Assembly: GCA_040218735.1 (NCBI GenBank)
Contig: JAVJQW010000038.1
Location: 160,001 to 224,000 of the forward strand
Reading direction: 5' to 3'
DNA length: 64,000 bases
Origin: Deltaproteobacteria bacterium
GTDB taxonomy: Bacteria; Myxococcota; Kuafuiibacteriia; Kuafuiibacteriales; Kuafuiibacteriaceae
The notes beneath the pieces are model-generated. The model did no database searches and was not told where the DNA came from. It was given only the letters and a program-made list of their open reading frames with translations. The translations under genes were made by a program, and so were the position numbers. Numbering within the stretch: the first letter of the stretch is position 1; every line of letters begins with the position of its first letter. Below, in pieces: positions 5 to 6,859 of the stretch.

Positions 5-337
5 ATGGGCGCCGACGTCGGCGACGAGCTGAAGGCGACGCTGTCGCGGCTGGAGCGCGTCACGGAGCGCATCGAGGACATGCAAGCTCGCTTGCAGGCG
101 GCGTTCGGTTTGTTCGAGCGGTGGGGCGACGTCGCGGAGGCCGGGATGGTGAACGAACCGGCGACGATGAAGCGCATGGCGGGCAACATCCGAAAGATCG
201 CGGCGGACTTCGCCGACATGATCGAAGAAGGCACCGACCTCTCCGAAGAAGGCATGGACGACATGATGAAGGAGATGGAGAAGGGCGGAACGCTGCGCCC
301 GAAGAAGGGCGGCGCGAAGGACGAGCTGTTCGAGTAG
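5..337 (+). CDS. hypothetical protein, probably the C-terminal part of a gene that starts before the window
   Basis: Frame is open to the window edge; high-GC3 codons; helical, acidic sequence; TAG at 335-337. Confidence 0.6.
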   Translation: MGADVGDELKATLSRLERVTERIEDMQARLQAAFGLFERWGDVAEAGMVNEPATMKRMAGNIRKIAADFADMIEEGTDLSEEGMDDMMKEMEKGGTLRPKKGGAKDELFE

Positions 338-681
338 CTCGTTCTCTTGAATGGATCGCGGGATCGGTTCTTGGCGCCCGGGATCGTTCGTTCCACTGAA
401 GATACCGCTCAGATCGGCCTGGGATCCGGGGCTGCGGGGCCGAATCCTCGGGGGTGGTCCTGGGCCCCCCGAATAAGGGCTCGAAACGTGCTTTTTGCGG
501 GACTTTTCGGCCGCAACCTCGCGAAACAGGGGATAGATGGCCGATTTCGGCTTCTTTCGGCGCTCGGACCCGTTGCGCCCGTTCATTTCTTCCGATACGG
601 TCCGCGCCCATCACGACGGGGACGGTCTCCGTCGAAACGCCCCGTGAAGGGGCAAGAACGCAATCTCTGGAGGTTAACGGG

Positions 682-891
682 ATGGCCGGTAAGAAGAAGG
701 CGGGCGCCAAGAAGCCCAAGGAAATGCTCCTCGTGCAGAGCAAGGTGAAGGAATACGTCCGCGGGCAGGAGATGATGTGCTCGTCGGATCTCGTCGAGGC
801 GCTGAACGACCACGTCGCGTGGCTGCTCGACAAGGCCGTGGAGCGCGCGAGCGCGAACGGCCGCAAGACGGCGCGCGCGAGCGACGTCTAA
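682..891 (+). CDS. bacterial histone (Bd0055-like singlet histone fold) with Lys-rich N-terminal extension, 69 aa
   Basis: ATG at 682 preceded by GGAGG (669-673). MAGKKKAGAKKPKEMLLVQSKVKEYVRGQEMMCSSDLVEALNDHVAWLLDKAVERASANGRKTARASDV follows the Bd0055 pattern (LVxSKVK...L...A..A.A.GRKT....D). Confidence 0.88.
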   Translation: MAGKKKAGAKKPKEMLLVQSKVKEYVRGQEMMCSSDLVEALNDHVAWLLDKAVERASANGRKTARASDV

Positions 892-906
892 TCTAGGCGA
901 CCGCTC

Positions 907-924
907 AGCCCATCTCGATGGGCT
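907..924. terminator. hairpin between convergent genes, possible bidirectional terminator
   Basis: AGCCCATC-TC-GATGGGCT perfect inverted repeat between the histone stop (891) and the stop of the converging gene (923-925); no U-tract. Confidence 0.4.
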
Positions 925-2578
925 AGTTGGTACTTCGTGGGCGTGCGTCCGCACGCCGGTGCGTGCGCCCACGAGCACTCCACAGCAACGCGACGAACAC
1001 CCACCCCCAGGCGCTCTGCCTCGAACGTCGCGTCGAAGAACACGAACAACCCATCTCGTCCGCCGGCAACTTGGTCGGAGGGGCACAGCCGTCGAAGCGC
1101 GAGCAAAGCGATCCGCGCCCGTCGGTGTACGCGACGTACGCGGCGTCCATCGCGACGCGGAACGCCTCGTAGGGGGCGAGGTCGACGCTCGCGGCTGCTT
1201 CACCCGGGGCGGTGAGCACGACGTAACGAAGCGCGCGCTCCGCGACGCCCGGATCGCGCGGTCCGACGCGCGCGACGACATCCTCGATCGTCACGTCGAT
1301 CCGCCGGCCGAGGATCGCGGTCCCCACGGCGAGCTGCGCTTCGGCGGGGATCGCGGCGCCGTCCTCGGTGGTGGCGTCAGCGACGAAGAAAAACGGCGGG
1401 ACCTCGTCGGCGTCTGCGAGCCCGAGCCCGTACAGATCGAGCGGGGCGTAGCGCTCGTTCCTCGACTGCACGACGAAGCGCCCGGGGCGTGACTCGACGA
1501 ACCCGTGGCCACCGAGGACGGAGCCGTCGGTGTGCAAGAGCGCGTGCCAGTGCGCGCGCTGCCGGCCGAGCATCGTGACCGCCGCGGTCGAGCCGCCGAC
1601 CGTGGCCTCGAGGTGCGCGAGGTGCCGGTGCGCGATCTCGTGGAAGAAGAGCGCCTCGTCCTCGTCGCCGAGCTGCTTCATGTTGACGATGCCCTCGAGC
1701 CGCTCGACGCCGAACGCCGCGCGCTGATCCACGTCGTCGTCGCCGGTGCCCGCGACGTCGTCGAAGAACGGCACGTAGTAGGCCGGGCCGCCCGCGCCGA
1801 GATCGTCGAACGTGGTGAAGAGGACGATGACACCTTCGCCGTCCGCGCCCTCGTCGGCGAGGCGCGCCGTGATCCTCGCGAGGTCGTCGACCTCGTCGTC
1901 GAAGCGGATCCCGTAGGCGTCATCGATCCCGCTGACGAGACCGTCGCCCTCGAGCACGAGGAGCTCGCCGACGCGCGCGGTGAGGGCGTGGCCGGTGGTG
2001 CGGACGTGGTCGTTGGCGAAGCGGCGGGGCGTGTGGGTGCCGCGGTCGAGCGCGGGGGCGCAGGCGGTGAGGGCGAGGAGGAGGAGGGTGGGGATCGGGT
2101 TGGGGATCGGGATCGGACTCCGGATCGGATTCGGGATCGGACTCCGACTCGGATTCGGGATCGGATGCGGATGCGGATGCGGGATCGGATTCCGACTCGG
2201 ATTCGGGATCGGACTCCGACTCGGATTCGGGATCGGATTCGGGATCGGATGCGGATGCGGGATCGGACTCGGATTCCGACTCCGACTCCGACTCGGGATC
2301 GGGATCGGACTCCGACTCGGATTCGGGATCGGTTCCCGAGTCCGATTCTGTTCCTGAGTCCGATCCTGTTCCGGAATCCGCGCCCGAATCCGATCCCGTT
2401 CCCGAATCCGAGTCCGAGTCCGAGTCCGAGTCCGAGTCCGATCCCGCATCCGAATCCGCATCCGAATCCGCGTCCGAATCCGCGTCCGAATCCGAGTCCG
2501 CGGCCGATTCCGAATCCGCGTCCGATTCCGAGTCGGTGTCCGAGTCCGATCCCCTTCCCAACGCATCATCATCACCAC
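923..2578 (-). CDS. exported Zn-metalloprotease-like lipoprotein with MYXO-CTERM-like tail; true start unresolved inside the repeat tract
   Basis: Lipobox-like LLLLALTAC near 2060-2090; HEIAHRH (HExxH); C-terminal GCSC...[17 protein letters not shown]. The first ~160 codons of the ORF are translated microsatellite. Confidence 0.7.
2091..2555. repeat. degenerate hexamer microsatellite arranged as a large imperfect inverted repeat
   Basis: Left arm of GGGATC/GGATTC/GGACTC/GGATGC units; right arm of their reverse complements (GAGTCC/GAATCC/GCATCC); centre TCGGGA-TCGGT-TCCCGA at 2323-2339. Confidence 0.85.
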
Positions 2579-2652
2579 GGCCGCGATTCAGTACCGGGAC
2601 CCGGACCGGGACCACCACGGCCGCGATTCAGTACCGGGACCCGGACCGGGAC
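2573..2652. repeat. exact 40-bp tandem duplication (2 copies)
   Basis: CACCACGGCCGCGATTCAGTACCGGGACCCGGACCGGGAC at 2573-2612 and 2613-2652. Confidence 0.95.
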
Positions 2653-2725
2653 CGGGACCGGGTCCCCTTGCTTCGCTCGGGGTGGATATTGACGACCACC
2701 CCACCCCTCGTCATCCTCACCGGCG

Positions 2726-2941
2726 GTGAAGTTCCGACTCAAGCGCCGCGTGAAGAAGATGAACGTCTGCACGCGGTGCGAGGCGACGATGGACCGGCGG
2801 ACGTCCATCCCCGAGGGCGCCGGGCGGCGCTACTGGGGGGACGTCGAGCCGTACGTCTACGTCGGCGACGCCGAGATTCATCACTTCATCTGCACGGCCT
2901 GCGGCAACCTCACCGCGATCCAGTTCGCCGAAGCCGCGTAG
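2726..2941 (+). CDS. small zinc-ribbon protein
   Basis: CTRC...CTAC pair of CxxC motifs in 71 aa; typical codon usage; 5 nt before the next gene. Confidence 0.7.
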
Positions 2942-2946
2942 GCGCC

Positions 2947-3675
2947 GTGGCGGTCAAGGGTCCCAAGGACCGCGGCCCGCTCCCGCCGCGGGTCGATCCC
3001 CAGGCGCCCGACACCACGCCCCGCGAAGCCCCGCGCCTGGACGCCACGCGATGGCCCGGTGCGCTCGCGCCGAAGGATCACGACGCCCCGGGGCACGACG
3101 CCCTCCTCGGCGAGGGGCAGATCGGCGACCCCAGCGTCACGCCCGACGCGCTCATGCAGATGGGCTCCCTCGTGCGCGCCCGCCACCTCATGACCCTCCT
3201 CGCGCGACGGCGCGGGCAGATCGAGCGCGACGCGCTCGTCGCCGAGGTCGGCGATCTCCTCCTCGCGCTCGACCCCGCCGAGGCGCGTCGGCTCCTGTTC
3301 ACGATGACGCAGGCCGGCCGCATCGTGGACGTGTACCCGCTCGAGGTCTTCGACTACGTGCACCGGCGCCGCGCGCTCGCCGACGTCGAGTACGGCCCCA
3401 TCGTGAAGAACAAGGATGACCTCGAGGGCCGCGCGTTCACGCCCGACGACGTCATCCGACTCGAGCTCGCGGCGCTCGCCGTGCGCCTTCAGGCCCTCGC
3501 GCTGGAGGGCGGCCCCACCCCCGGCTACTGCCTCGCGCCCGGCCCGCCCGGTCGCTATCACCTCCAGTTCGACGCCCCCGGGACGTTTTCCCTGTTGCTG
3601 CGGGCCCAAATCCGCAAGAAGACTCGCCTCGAGCGCCTACGAATCCGCGTCGAGGACGCCGAATCGCCGCGCTGA
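2947..3675 (+). CDS. hypothetical protein
   Basis: GTG at 2947 in frame with ORF 2536..3675; Pro-rich N-terminus, then helical and beta regions. Confidence 0.65.
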
Positions 3676-3736
3676 ATGGTAGTATCCCGTGGGGACGGGG
3701 CGCCGGTGTGACCGCCGGCTGCGACGAGTGATTTCC

Positions 3737-6700
3737 ATGAACAGATCCGCTGCGCTCTTCTCGATCATCTTGCTCTCGGCGGCGTGTGGCTCGGGCGAAG
3801 ACCTCGGCGACGAGACGGTCCCGCGCGACGGCGGCCCCGACCGCCCGCCGGTCGTCCGACCCGACGCCGGCCCGGACGTCCCCGACGTCCCGCTGCCCAC
3901 CGTCACCAACGTCTCCCCCGCGACAGGCCCCGAGACCGGCGGCACCCGCGTGACCATCCGCGGCACGTCCTTCGCCGAACCCGCCGAGGTCTACTTCGGT
4001 GAGCTCGCCGCCAGCAGCGTCGTCGTCCTCGACGAAGTCTCCATCGCCGCGACCACGCCGCCGAACCCCGTCGGCGCCGTGAACGTCCGCGTGGTCACGC
4101 CCGGCGGCGAGGCCACCCTCGACAACGGCTTCACGTACCACCGCGAGCTCGTGCTCGACTCCGTCGAGCCGCGGCGCATCCCCGACGAGGGCGGCGTGCG
4201 GGTCATCGTCCGCGGCCGAGGTTTCGACGCCCAAACGATCGTGCTCTTCGATCGCCAACCGCTCCGCGGACAGATCCTCGTCGATGAACGACGCATCGAA
4301 GGTTACGCGCCCGCGCTCGAGCCCGGGCGCCCCGAAGTACGCGTCATCCACGTCGACGCCTCCGTGCGCCGCAGCGACGTCGTCTACGTCTATGGCACCC
4401 CCGACATCGACGCGGTCGCGCCCGGCTACGGCCCCGCCACCGGGCGCGCCGCGCAGGAGATCGCCGGCGACGGCCTGTCCGACGCCGACGAAGTCCGCAT
4501 CGGTCCGGAGGTCGCGGGCGGCCTCGAGCTCGCGGACGACACGCGCCTCGCGGTCACGTCCCCGGCGCTCGCGGTCGGCGTGCACGACGTGACGGTCGCG
4601 AACCAGGACACGTTCGGCACGCTCGTGGGCGGCTACATCGCGTACGATCCGAACGAGACGCAGACGAGCGTCCTCGGCGTCACGCCGCCGCGTGCGTCCA
4701 CCGCGGGGGGCACGGTCATCGCGCTCGTCGGGTACGGCTTCGCGCAGGACGCCCAGGTCGCGATCGCCGGGCAGCGCCTCCCGATCACCGCGCTGTCCGC
4801 CAACGCGGTGTCGTTCGTGCTGCCGGCGGGGCTCCCGGCCGGGCCGACGGACATCGCGTTCTTCACGCAGGGCCGCTCGATCAACGTGAACAACCAGCTG
4901 ACGCTCTTCGACCCGGTCGTCGTCGACAGCGTGGATCCCGCGACGGGGCCCGTCAGCGGCGGGACCGCGGTGACGATCCGCGGCTCCGGCTTCATCGCGG
5001 GGGCGAACGTGCGCATCGCGGACGTCCCGCTCGCGGATGTCGTCATCGTGAGTGACACCGAGATCACCGGCACCACGGTCGCCGGCGCCCACGGCGCGCA
5101 GGACGTCGTCGTGCGGACCGCCGACTCGACCGGCGTGCTCGAGGACGGCTTCTTCTTCGAGGAGGCGTTCGAGCTCATCGCCATCGAGCCGCGCGAAGGC
5201 TCGATGGCCGGCAACACCTACGTGTCGATCATCGGTCGCGGCTTCTCGGAGCCGGTGAGCGTCGAGTTCGACGGCGTCGAGGGCATCGACCCGGTGCTCG
5301 AGAACGGCTCGGTCATCGGCGTGCGCACCGCGCCCGCGAGCCCGGGGCTGGTCGACGTGGAGATCACGACGGGTGTCGAGCAGGTGTTGCGCGAGCGCGC
5401 GTTCCGCTTCTACGACCCGCGCCTCATCACCGGTGGCGCGTGGGGCGGGCCGATCGAAGGCTCGGTCAACGTGGCGGTGATGACGCGTCAGCGGCAGCCG
5501 CTCGCGGGCATGGTGGTTCAGCTCGGCTACGAGGCCGACATCCGCTACGCCGCCATCACCGACGAAAACGGCCTCGCGACCATCTCCTGGCCGGACGTCC
5601 GCGGCGCGCAGACCGTGACGGCCGGCGGGCCGCAGGTGGAGTTCGTGACGTTCATGGATCTGAACGCCAAGAACCTCACGATGTTCGCGGAGCCCTATCC
5701 GATGTCGATGCCCCCGGACGCACCGCTGCAGCCGTGCGGCGTCCCGGCGCCCCCGCCGACGGTCACGGGGCGGATCTTCCGCTTCAAGTCCGCGCTCGAC
5801 GAGCAGACGCGCCCGGGTTGGCAGCCGCTCGCGCGCATCACGTACACGCAGCAGAACGTCTTCACGCCGAACCCGCCGGAAGGGATGATGCCGCCGTTCC
5901 AGGAGGCCGAGGTGACGATGGAGGGCGGCGCCTACGAGATCGCGGTGATGCGCGCCGGCACGGTCGCGGTTTACGCGACGTTCGGGGAGTACAACCGCGC
6001 GACGGGGCAGTTCATCCCGAAGCGCATGGGGATCGTGCGCAACGTCCCGGTCGCGCCGGAGACGGAGACGTCGGACATCAACATCTCGCTCGACATCGAC
6101 CTCGACCAGACCACGGCCGTGCGCCTCGACGCGCCGCCGGACCAGCTGCCGGGGCCGACGATCAACGCGGTGTTCCCGTTCCTCAACCTGCAGTCGGACG
6201 GCGTCATCCCGTTCCCCGCGGTCGCGGTGTTCGGCGAGGGGCCGGTCATCGTGAACAACATGCCGCGCGTGGCGGAGTCGAGCTTCTACTACATGGGCGG
6301 CTCGTTCACGTGGGACGGGCAAGGTGGCTTGCGCAACCCGTACTCGCTCTCGTTCACGGAGAGCGGCGAGCCGCTCGAGAACGGCGTCGACATGGGGCCG
6401 TTCCTCCAGATGCCGCAGAACATCTCGCCGAAGCCCGGCGAGCTCACGGTGGACGGGAAGATCTCCTGGGACACCATCGGCGTCACGCCGGACATCACGA
6501 CGCTCAACGTCGTCGACGTCGTCGGCGTGAGCGGCTGCTGCTGCGACGACGAGCCGCCGCGCGGAAACCGCAACGGCCAGTGCGACGCCGGCGAGCCGGA
6601 GAACTGCGGCGGGATCCCGCAGCAGTTCAACCGCTGGAGCATCTTCGGCCAGGGCGGGCTGCAGAGCTACGCGATGCCGCGGATGCCGCTGTCCCTCACG

Positions 6701-6859
6701 GCGTTCGACACCCCCCGCAACTACGCCGTGCTCGGTCAGTTGGCGATCGCGCCGCGCTTCGACTACAGCGAGTTCATCTACAACCAGTTCTCGCCGTTCT
6801 TCTGGCAGAGCTGGGTGGTCTTCCAGTCGCAAGTGTTCGTGAAGGAAGAAACGGACTGA
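3737..6859 (+). CDS. large surface lipoprotein with multiple IPT/TIG domains
   Basis: Signal MNRSAALFSIILLSAAC; about six repeats of type V.P..G...GGT.VTI.G.GF; C-terminal beta-rich region with a Cys cluster. Confidence 0.88.
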   Translation: MNRSAALFSIILLSAACGSGEDLGDETVPRDGGPDRPPVVRPDAGPDVPDVPLPTVTNVSPATGPETGGTRVTIRGTSFAEPAEVYFGELAASSVVVLDEVSIAATTPPNPVGAVNVRVVTPGGEATLDNGFTYHRELVLDSVEPRRIPDEGGVRVIVRGRGFDAQTIVLFDRQPLRGQILVDERRIEGYAPALEPGRPEVRVIHVDASVRRSDVVYVYGTPDIDAVAPGYGPATGRAAQEIAGDGLSDADEVRIGPEVAGGLELADDTRLAVTSPALAVGVHDVTVANQDTFGTLVGGYIAYDPNETQTSVLGVTPPRASTAGGTVIALVGYGFAQDAQVAIAGQRLPITALSANAVSFVLPAGLPAGPTDIAFFTQGRSINVNNQLTLFDPVVVDSVDPATGPVSGGTAVTIRGSGFIAGANVRIADVPLADVVIVSDTEITGTTVAGAHGAQDVVVRTADSTGVLEDGFFFEEAFELIAIEPREGSMAGNTYVSIIGRGFSEPVSVEFDGVEGIDPVLENGSVIGVRTAPASPGLVDVEITTGVEQVLRERAFRFYDPRLITGGAWGGPIEGSVNVAVMTRQRQPLAGMVVQLGYEADIRYAAITDENGLATISWPDVRGAQTVTAGGPQVEFVTFMDLNAKNLTMFAEPYPMSMPPDAPLQPCGVPAPPPTVTGRIFRFKSALDEQTRPGWQPLARITYTQQNVFTPNPPEGMMPPFQEAEVTMEGGAYEIAVMRAGTVAVYATFGEYNRATGQFIPKRMGIVRNVPVAPETETSDINISLDIDLDQTTAVRLDAPPDQLPGPTINAVFPFLNLQSDGVIPFPAVAVFGEGPVIVNNMPRVAESSFYYMGGSFTWDGQGGLRNPYSLSFTESGEPLENGVDMGPFLQMPQNISPKPGELTVDGKISWDTIGVTPDITTLNVVDVVGVSGCCCDDEPPRGNRNGQCDAGEPENCGGIPQQFNRWSIFGQGGLQSYAMPRMPLSLTAFDTPRNYAVLGQLAIAPRFDYSEFIYNQFSPFFWQSWVVFQSQVFVKEETD

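Follow-up and report, generated by a model that had tools for sequence, protein, structure and literature searches.

RESULTS

The histone gene and its signals

The window, i.e., the whole 64,000-nucleotide stretch of DNA analyzed here, carries close to its first letter a stand-alone gene whose product is a small histone-fold protein, hereafter P0001 (Table 1). The initial annotation had described a 69-aa gene with a good ribosome-binding site, a 344-bp upstream spacer and a downstream hairpin, buried in the ORF track within a longer frame, and all of these points were borne out: the gene runs from ATG to TAA without interruption, the Shine-Dalgarno motif is properly spaced, and in the mechanical ORF list the histone frame begins earlier, at a GTG at 454, for a length of 145 aa. 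An in-frame internal Met codon is found at 724 (Met15). The spacer is presumed to hold the promoter and the 5' leader of the histone gene; within positions 300 to 1100, a promoter scan found no sigma-70-like promoter and an Rfam search at E ≤ 1 found no match. Downstream of the stop codon, the RNA is predicted to form not one hairpin but two, with a folding energy of −49.8 kcal/mol for positions 886 to 990 (z = −3.79; 0 of 200 shuffles folded equally well), the first of which (~900 to 931) contains a 7-bp G+C-rich core where 907 to 913 pairs with 918 to 924. Both hairpins are free of a T-run, and a consensus scan for terminators on the plus strand returned none; this region could possibly act as a terminator devoid of a U-tract.

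Table 1 Positions of the histone gene, its signals and the parts of its product in the window
Feature	Position	Strand	Basis or remark
Spacer of 344 bp 5' of the histone gene	338..681	+	FecR-domain gene ends at 337
Shine-Dalgarno GGAGG	669..673	+	8 nt 5' of ATG 682; read from sequence
Histone gene, 69 codons + TAA, protein P0001	682..891	+	Read from sequence; ATG 682, TAA 889-891
N-terminal tail, residues 1-14 (6 Lys, 1 Glu; net +5)	682..723	+	Sequence; AlphaFold2; homologue alignment
Predicted alpha3-truncated histone fold, residues 15-69	724..888	+	DSSP on AlphaFold2 model
Predicted helix 1, residues 19-28	736-765	+	DSSP on model
Predicted helix 2, residues 35-58	784-855	+	DSSP on model
Predicted loop 2 and one-turn helix 3 (3-residue helix 66-68), residues 59-69	856-888	+	DSSP on model
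Codons of the predicted dimer-dimer interface and RD clamp, residues 55-68 (R55, N59, R61, S67, D68)	844..885	+	Four-copy model, HLp mapping
Two predicted hairpins 3' of the stop	900..974 (900-931, 935-974)	+	RNA fold of 886-990

Metatranscriptome assemblies provided sequences matching the gene. Run X19 yielded a 156-nt assembled contig on 541 to 697, with 12 differences and 1 gap, two contigs on 704 to 782 and 753 to 845 without differences, and another on 753 to 890, while run X20 yielded one assembled contig on 684 to 890; in run X24, no contig matched the histone region. Positions 300 to 540 and 912 to 1300 have no cover in these runs, a gap to which no weight is attached. The X19 and X20 contigs establish the presence of near-identical or related sequence in RNA libraries and are silent on start, strand and level.

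The genome to which the window belongs (11.6 Mb, 70 contigs, 96.5% complete) contains a single copy of the histone gene together with four genes of the HU/IHF family, and a search for DUF1931 in this genome at E ≤ 1 gave no match. The upstream neighbor, whose complete sequence was taken from locus L001, codes for a FecR-domain protein of 358 aa that looks secreted, and the downstream neighbor encodes an IPT/TIG-domain protein. A genome scan restricted to one genome per species retrieved 13 related loci (L003 to L015), all from Myxococcota or “Deltaproteobacteria” bins, in which the FecR gene recurs 6 times, the TIG gene 10 times, the gene at 2536 to 3675 of the window 8 times and the minus-strand gene at 923 to 2578 4 times. 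None of the flanking genes in the window and in these 13 loci suggests a link to chromatin or lysine modification.

P0001 has the fold of an alpha3-truncated histone

A homologue search provided 58 proteins, i.e., all 58 candidates passing E ≤ 0.001, with lengths of 64 to 87 aa, the named members of which come from Myxococcota or “Deltaproteobacteria” metagenome bins. The AlphaFold2 model of P0001 computed from these 58 homologues (mean pLDDT of 83) displays the succession of helix, loop, long helix, loop and short helix that characterizes alpha3-truncated histones, in which helix 2 is shortened and helix 3 measures only ~1 turn. Comparison of P0001 with the PDB by phmmer identified HLp of Leptospira perolatii (9qt0, E = 6.4e-9), HTkC of Thermococcus kodakarensis (9f2c, E = 1.2e-7) and Bd0055/HBb of Bdellovibrio (8cmp/8fvx, E ~1.2e-5), and Foldseek placed the same three proteins at the top of the structural matches (TM of 0.83 to 0.92 on the target, rmsd of 0.6 to 1.0; for HLp, TM of 0.90 and rmsd of 0.9), followed by the archaeal HPhA/HMfB, NF-Y and eukaryotic histones. 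The loop-2 R-x-T motif and the R-D clamp are present as R61, T63 and D68, which align with R55, T57 and D62 of HLp; across the 58 homologues, R61 and D68 never vary, T63 persists in at least 90%, and the other invariant positions are Q19, S20, K21, N59, K62, A64 and R65. P0001 is a bacterial histone-fold protein, as the initial annotation had proposed from its similarity to Bd0055. That similarity is itself real, but Bd0055 is not the nearest relative, HLp and HTkC being both closer by the E values given above.

This identity escapes the usual family models. A Pfam search with P0001 returned 0 families at E ≤ 10, neither CBFD_NFYB_HMF (PF00808) nor DUF1931 (PF09123) being matched, and the NCBIfam model archaea_histone (NF043032) scored 15.5 bits, below its cutoff of 50.

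P0001 carries the signature of face-to-face histones

Schwab et al. (2024; PMC11390915) divided the short “alpha3” histones into two groups. Face-to-face (FtF) histones are those for which a homotetramer is predicted with confidence, each dimer engaging with both of its sides; their conserved tetramerization residues are R41, N45 and R47 in D4GZE0. Bd0055-type “bacterial dimers” are described as devoid of the two FtF tetramerization residues (PMC11390915). The same source lists Myxococcota among the phyla having FtF histones and describes the lysine of the loop-2 R-K-T as lacking strong conservation in the profile of FtF histones, and as a feature that typifies the nucleosomal and dimer groups. 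For HLp, Hu et al. (2025; PMC12701072) reported a tetramer contact that brings R49, S52 and N53 from one chain together with R55, T61 and F63 from its partner, with R49, N53 and R55 conserved among the tetrameric bacterial FtF histones.

In the phmmer alignments, R55, N59 and R61 of P0001 coincide with R49, N53 and R55 of HLp, and Bd0055 has S and D where P0001 has R55 and N59. The whole set of HLp interface and clamp residues (R49, S52, N53, R55, T61, F63 and D62) maps to R55, A58, N59, R61, S67, V69 and D68 of P0001. A profile built from the 58 homologues and run against 1.84 billion representatives gave 1740 matches at E ≤ 0.001, of which 287 reached E ≤ 1e-10; when the 58 homologues were pooled with the best 150 of these 1740 matches and only single-fold proteins were retained, a set of 163 singlets was obtained. 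Within this set, R55 and N59 are both present in 160 of 163 proteins, and the full signature R, N, R, T, D at positions 55, 59, 61, 63 and 68, which P0001 itself possesses, is found in 156 of 163.

Modeling of four copies of P0001 gave a score of 0.85, compared with 0.00 for the best of 3 controls, a score that may owe something to the tetramers of HLp and HTkC already solved (9QT0, 9F2C), which the model could have memorized. Among proteins of known structure, 20 of 30 that were solved as pairs of one chain attained the mark applied here, against 1 of 23 single-chain proteins; this calibration of the complex-model tool was made with two copies, not four. The runs agreed in at least 89% of contacts with a partner pLDDT of at least 83, and the model comprises, in addition to the handshake contact (residues 14 to 69), a second contact with a copy belonging to the other dimer, predicted at residues 54-55, 58-59, 61, 65 and 67-68. 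The predicted homotetramer that defines the FtF class was thus obtained at the level of contacts.

One tendency of the FtF profile, which is not a defining feature, is absent from the clade: the profile has no strongly conserved Lys/Arg after the loop-2 Arg (R-x-T rather than R-K-T), and K62 is invariant in the 58 homologues. R-K-T also occurs in HTkC, whose FtF tetramer has been solved, and in other Myxococcota relatives loop 2 reads R-S-T or R-A-T. P0001 shows neither the lack of tetramerization residues nor the limitation to dimers in models by which the Bd0055 class is recognized. In view of the tetramerization residues, of the better matches to HLp and HTkC and of the modeled dimer-dimer contact, P0001 is filed in the FtF, HLp-like class, an assignment drawn from alignments and predicted contacts, and the Bd0055-type class proposed in the initial annotation had to be given up.

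The lysine-rich tail is conserved and very probably translated

The stretch preceding the fold contains 6 Lys in 13 aa (residues 2 to 14), exactly as first noted, and its residues 1 to 10, with pLDDT values below 50 in the AlphaFold2 model, are predicted to be disordered. The survey of tail conservation called for by the initial annotation revealed a tail kept throughout the 58 close homologues, with an invariant M1, while A2, K4, K5 and K10 occur in no fewer than 90% of the sequences; K4, K5, K10 and K11 stand out as strongly conserved. The motif of this 58-protein clade reads M-A-x-K-K-K ... K-K-P-K/R-E, where the second cluster (K10, K11, P12), located 27 to 36 nt into the gene, is as conserved as the first one. 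A KPKE stretch directly before helix 1 is also found in more distant relatives (P0060, P0093, P0097, P0098, P0175 and others).

An initiation at the internal Met (MLLVQ, 724), which would remove the tail, had been named from the start as the case that would undo this reading. Met15 is indeed present in at least 90% of the 58 homologues. However, GGAGG (13 loci) or AAGGAG (L012) stands 5 to 8 nt upstream of the tail start codon in 14 of 14 loci, i.e., the window and L003 to L015, and the upstream DNA apart from this Shine-Dalgarno motif has diverged among them. Thirteen of the 14 loci open the tail with ATG, and L013 does so with TTG. In L012, the codon at position 15 is not one for Met, and protein similarity among the 14 loci begins at the tail Met, the in-frame translations upstream of it being unalike. 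This pattern of ribosome-binding site, start codon and similarity makes a start at 724 unlikely: judging from these sequence comparisons, translation very probably begins at ATG 682 and includes the tail; a minor shorter product initiated at Met15 is possible besides the tailed protein. At the codon level, the tail lysines vary synonymously (AAG/AAA) and position 13 is either Lys or Arg (CGC, AGA), so that what is kept is charge and not A-richness.

The tail holds the net positive charge of the protein

In P0001, the tail (residues 1 to 14) has a net charge of +5 and the fold (residues 15 to 69) a net charge of 0. The same partition was observed across the 58 homologues, whose folds all lie between −1 and +1 (58/58) and whose tails, 9 to 17 residues long (median 14), range from −2 to +6 (median +4), with at least +3 in 53 of 58. 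The 5 exceptions (P0017, P0038, P0042, P0050 and P0057) have weakly basic or acidic tails. Since these 5 of 58, together with two genomes of another family (f30, see below), depart from the rule, a basic tail is not obligatory for the function of the fold. Altogether, selection appears to act on tail charge. Among representatives, no trend of charge compensation, in which the tail would be more basic where the fold is less so, was detected (Spearman rho = 0.06, p = 0.53).

In the HLp-DNA crystals, DNA is reported to be touched by the N-terminal end of helix 1 (A13, S14 and K15), K17, K21, T56 and T57 (PMC12701072). These residues map to Q19, S20, K21, K23, R27, K62 and T63 of P0001, each of which either never varies in the 58 homologues or is found in no fewer than 90% of them. 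Because the start of helix 1 corresponds to a DNA contact of HLp, the tail would leave the fold right at the predicted DNA contact. In the four-copy model, residues 1 to 13 made no confident contact. The first 6 to 7 residues of HLp are described as invisible in the crystals both with and without DNA (PMC12701072), and hence no structure shows such a tail on DNA.

Basic tails are common and variable among related histones

The premise of the initial annotation, according to which basic tails are typical of eukaryotic and some Asgard archaeal histones, proved too narrow. Schwab et al. (PMC11390915) have already published bacterial FtF histones with positively charged tails. Outside the close family, 105 single-fold representatives occur among the best 150 of the 1740 profile matches; with N-termini taken as annotated in the database, some of them clearly over-extended, tails of 8 residues or more with a net charge of at least +3 occur in 55 of 105, and tails of 5 residues or fewer in 14 of 105.

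Histone matches at E ≤ 1e-5 were found in 104 of 401 sampled genomes of the phylum, with marked differences between families: 16/19 in the family of the window (f1), 16/17 in f30, 11/18 in f3, 16/172 in f9 and 0/67 in f14. For 20 matches taken from 15 other families, the starts were chosen by ribosome-binding site and alignment, that of L037 being unclear. A start of the form M-A-(0-2 residues)-K-K was found in 13 of these 20, mostly with tails of 6 to 9 residues; L025 (f24) and L035 (f2), i.e., 2 of 20, have lysine-rich tails of ~25 to 35 residues, both f30 examples in the sample have acidic tails, and tail sequences differ widely from one family to another. Such tails are common and variable both in the profile matches and in this sample of 20, and the tail of P0001 is typical of the class. 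Since short M-A-x-K-K starts recur in other families, the 14-residue, two-cluster tail elaborates, as far as sequence comparison tells, on a short basic N-terminus that is widespread, and does so in a manner specific to its family.

DISCUSSION

A proposed tetrameric histone with a probable DNA-binding tail

P0001 has a histone fold, the residue signature of the FtF class, a conserved tail and a conserved ribosome-binding site in front of that tail. We propose a model in which it acts as an FtF histone tetramer equipped with a translated, disordered, DNA-binding lysine-rich tail, and we regard this model as the likely explanation of the locus as a whole. Two chains of 69 residues would associate into a histone handshake dimer, and two dimers would join into a closed tetramer, as in HLp and HTkC, by a surface composed of the last part of helix 2, of loop 2 and of the one-turn helix 3 (R55, N59, R61 and D68). 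By analogy with HLp, DNA would wrap around this tetramer, contacted by the N-terminus of helix 1 (Q19-S20-K21, K23 and R27) and by loop 2 (K62 and T63). The disordered 14-residue tail of each chain, with essentially all of the net positive charge, would emerge beside the helix-1 contact. The four tails of a tetramer would most likely provide non-specific electrostatic DNA binding and phosphate neutralization, thereby raising affinity and aiding compaction or bridging. Within this model, the tetrameric state in solution, the wrapping of DNA and the role of the tail are inferred.

Among known systems, HLp (PDB 9QT0-9QT2; PMC12701072) is both the best sequence match and the best structure match (41% identity). 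Common to HLp and P0001 are an alpha3-truncated fold, the residues of the tetramer contact (R49, N53 and R55 in HLp), the RD clamp R55-D62 (R61-D68 in P0001), the helix-1 DNA contacts S14, K15, K17 and K21 (S20, K21, K23 and R27 in P0001) and a flexible N-terminus. P0001 differs from HLp by a pre-core stretch ~6 residues longer and containing 6 Lys (query 12-68 aligned with chain 8-64), by R-K-T instead of R-T-T in loop 2, and by A58, S67 and V69 in place of S52, T61 and F63; moreover, tetramer formation and DNA wrapping are reported as demonstrated for HLp (PMC12701072), whereas P0001 is known from its sequence and from models. HTkC (PDB 9F2C), described in a preprint (10.64898/2025.12.06.692711), resembles P0001 in its short fold, its S-K-V-K in helix 1 and its G-R-K-T in loop 2 (46% identity over 56-57 columns, rmsd of 1.0), but it is archaeal, has no tail (59 residues) and carries a Glu at the position of N59.

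Weighing the alternatives

A different emphasis, compatible with the preferred explanation, would make the tail chiefly a regulatory platform whose lysines are reversibly acetylated or methylated to tune DNA binding, as on the tails of eukaryotic histones. In favor of such a role are the strong conservation of K4, K5, K10 and K11 within the clade and the predicted disorder of residues 1 to 10, which would leave them accessible; modified lysines are also on record for other bacterial nucleoid proteins (PMC5931751). The genome itself encodes two SET-domain proteins, and SET-domain genes are present in 176 of the 401 sampled genomes. Yet no modifying enzyme adjoins the histone gene between its FecR-domain and IPT/TIG-domain neighbors, tail sequences vary widely between families, and SET domains do not track the histone across the families of the phylum: histone and SET occur, respectively, in 16/19 versus 3/19 genomes of f1, 11/18 versus 0/18 of f3, 16/17 versus 1/17 of f30 and 16/172 versus 121/172 of f9. 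The idea of a dedicated SET methyltransferase for the tail was dropped because the two distributions run opposite by family, and we consider a chiefly regulatory role unlikely.

A speculative extension concerns the neutral-fold clade as a family-level group, probably of Myxococcota, in which DNA affinity would have been handed over to the conserved tail, so that charge-cancelling modification of a few tail lysines could switch chromatin binding on and off. We give this idea very little credit. If true, it would constitute a bacterial counterpart of histone-tail regulation, arisen independently of eukaryotes.

Bd0055/HBb of Bdellovibrio bacteriovorus (PDB 8FVX, 8CMP and 9EZZ), a dimer bending or coating DNA without wrapping it (PMC10627809, PMC11317129), offers the other structural template, and P0001 could be imagined as a dimer of this type with an unusual tail. 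Both proteins share the alpha3-truncated fold, S-K-V-K and G-R-K-T...D, including the R-K-T lysine K62 that P0001 has in common with the dimer class, and the match is significant in sequence and close in structure (rmsd of 0.6-0.7, 38% identity). Bd0055 has, however, only ~4 residues before the fold, and HLp and HTkC match P0001 better. The two tetramerization residues, absent from the dimer class as described in PMC11390915, are present in P0001 and in 160 of the 163 singlets drawn from the 58 homologues and the best 150 of 1740 matches, and R55 and N59 make a confident dimer-dimer contact in the four-copy model. A dimer of the Bd0055 type is in our view quite improbable.

It might also be argued that selection maintains an AAG-rich gene start at the RNA level, an unstructured initiation region favoring higher expression, with the lysines as a by-product. 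The DNA surrounding the gene is 60 to 73% G+C and the tail codons are almost all AAG, and the “MA-x-KK” starts in 13 of 20 sampled genomes of other families would fit this view. The exchange of Lys (AAG/AAA) for Arg (CGC/AGA) at position 13, which keeps the charge and not the A-richness, the equal conservation of the K10, K11, P12 cluster farther into the gene and the tails of 25 to 35 residues in other lineages, reaching far past the initiation region, speak against it and make it very improbable.

Finally, a main product of 55 residues starting at Met15 and devoid of a tail is hardly credible: its length would be close to that of archaeal FtF histones (55 to 59 aa in the leading entries of the Supplementary Fig. 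13 source data of PMC11390915) and Met15 is widespread and preceded by AAGGAA, but the tail start has its well-spaced motif in 14/14 loci, L012 dispenses with the Met15 codon, L013 keeps a TTG at the tail start, and the tail residues are conserved at the protein level. The AAGGAA ends 0 to 2 nt from ATG 724, too close for a ribosome-binding site, the usual spacing of which exceeds this distance.

The tail among basic extensions of nucleoid proteins

The preferred explanation, a tetramer with a DNA-binding tail, has likely functional parallels outside the histones. In Deinococcus, HU bears an N-terminal lysine/alanine/proline-rich extension on its small DNA-binding fold. The C-terminal tail of mycobacterial MDP1/HupB is described as a disordered basic extension, rich in Lys, Ala and Pro, that adds affinity and compaction (PMC5974015). 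By analogy, the tail of P0001 would most likely work like these basic extensions of nucleoid proteins, although MDP1/HupB and Deinococcus HU have an HU/IHF fold, much longer tails and no homology to P0001. The tails of eukaryote-type histones are likewise disordered and basic, but they are long and bear regulated lysine modifications; that of P0001 is short, with 14 residues, the first 10 of which have a pLDDT below 50. Compared with the positively charged tails known from bacterial FtF histones in general (PMC11390915), that of the 58-protein clade is set apart by its conserved sequence and by holding all of the net charge.

What is new here is a further FtF member; the class and its charged tails were known already, and the finding is largely expected. 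The current picture is left unchanged, since positively charged tails of bacterial FtF histones are in print (PMC11390915). Bacterial histones were recognized only in 2023-2025, bench studies deal only with HBb and HLp and address tails in neither, and our search of the literature on bacterial and face-to-face histones retrieved no experiment on a bacterial histone tail or on any Myxococcota histone. Against this background, the gene adds a well-supported tailed FtF histone from an 11.6-Mb bacterium with Myxococcota relatives, beside four HU/IHF-family genes. The clade represents a clean test case for the function of a bacterial histone tail, its fold being net neutral and its tail holding all of the net positive charge, and for this reason deletion of the tail should produce a large and easily measured effect. 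The clade also marks an annotation gap, as it is missed by the Pfam and NCBIfam models; relatives bear the name “hypothetical protein” in NCBI-sourced records and “histone H3/H4” in those of JGI.

Putative signal-bearing and other architectures among the relatives

Among the best 150 of 1,740 matches to the profile of close homologues, we observed eight relatives (P0060, P0073, P0093, P0097, P0098, P0175, and also P0111 and P0150), all encoded outside the window and its genome, whose N-terminus resembles a Sec signal peptide, namely, a hydrophobic stretch with A-x-A at its end, followed by S-K-P-K-E. P0060 ranks third among the profile matches (E value, 5.6e-31). Downstream of the putative signal, P0175 has a single FtF-like (face-to-face) fold and the others of the group have two, and these folds retain S-K-V-K and N-G-R-x-T-V-R-P-x-D. 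Judging from their sequences, P0060-type relatives may be exported histone-fold proteins. Schwab et al. (Nat Commun 2024, PMC11390915) mention only transmembrane histones in which the DNA-binding residues have been lost.

Tail-less doublets, i.e., single chains of ~117 to 134 amino acids holding two FtF-like folds, are frequent among the same best 150 of 1,740 matches (P0061, P0063 to P0070, and others), and some of them outscore most singlets in this search. In two further profile matches, P0177 and P0179, Cys-rich N-terminal domains precede the histone fold; both are probably members of the ZZ-histone category of Schwab et al. (PMC11390915). In other Myxococcota families, the same fold carries very different tails: lysine-rich and ~25 to 35 residues long at loci L025 (G096:C237) and L035 (G001:C64) of families f24 and f2, respectively, and acidic at loci L018 and L019 of family f30.

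The Pfam and NCBIfam models did not reach the clade of the histone studied here (P0001). Its relatives under NCBI names are "hypothetical protein," one cluster member (NCBI and other sources) is labeled "DNA-binding ferritin-like protein," and the JGI label for some is "histone H3/H4."

SET-domain genes

The genome under study has two SET-domain genes (see the table). Of 401 genomes sampled across the phylum, 176 had SET domains, chiefly those of family f9 (121/172); among 14 control genomes, one did. Across the 401 genomes, the distribution of SET domains did not match that of the histone.

Genomic surroundings of the histone gene

Two genes flank the histone gene, and the gene order is common to 10 of 13 related loci for the IPT/TIG protein and to 6 of 13 for the FecR-domain protein.

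Coordinates of features in the window and elsewhere in its genome
Feature	Location	Strand	Remark
1,056-aa protein, four IPT/TIG stretches	window 3689-6859	+	flanks histone
358-aa FecR-domain protein	L001 (own histone locus) 80-1156	+	flanks histone
SET-domain gene 1	G000:C59:222256-222630		locus L016
SET-domain gene 2	G000:C5:1407-1715		locus L017
Imperfect palindrome, ~470 bp	window 2088-2562		6-nt-period repeats
Palindrome arms	window 2088-2312 / 2338-2562		225 nt each, complementarity 73%
Exact tandem duplication, 40 nt	window 2573-2653

Two divergent genes have their conserved portions on either side of the palindrome; GC skew switches across it from +0.42 to -0.23, and within the long open reading frames of both strands it yields low-complexity translations.
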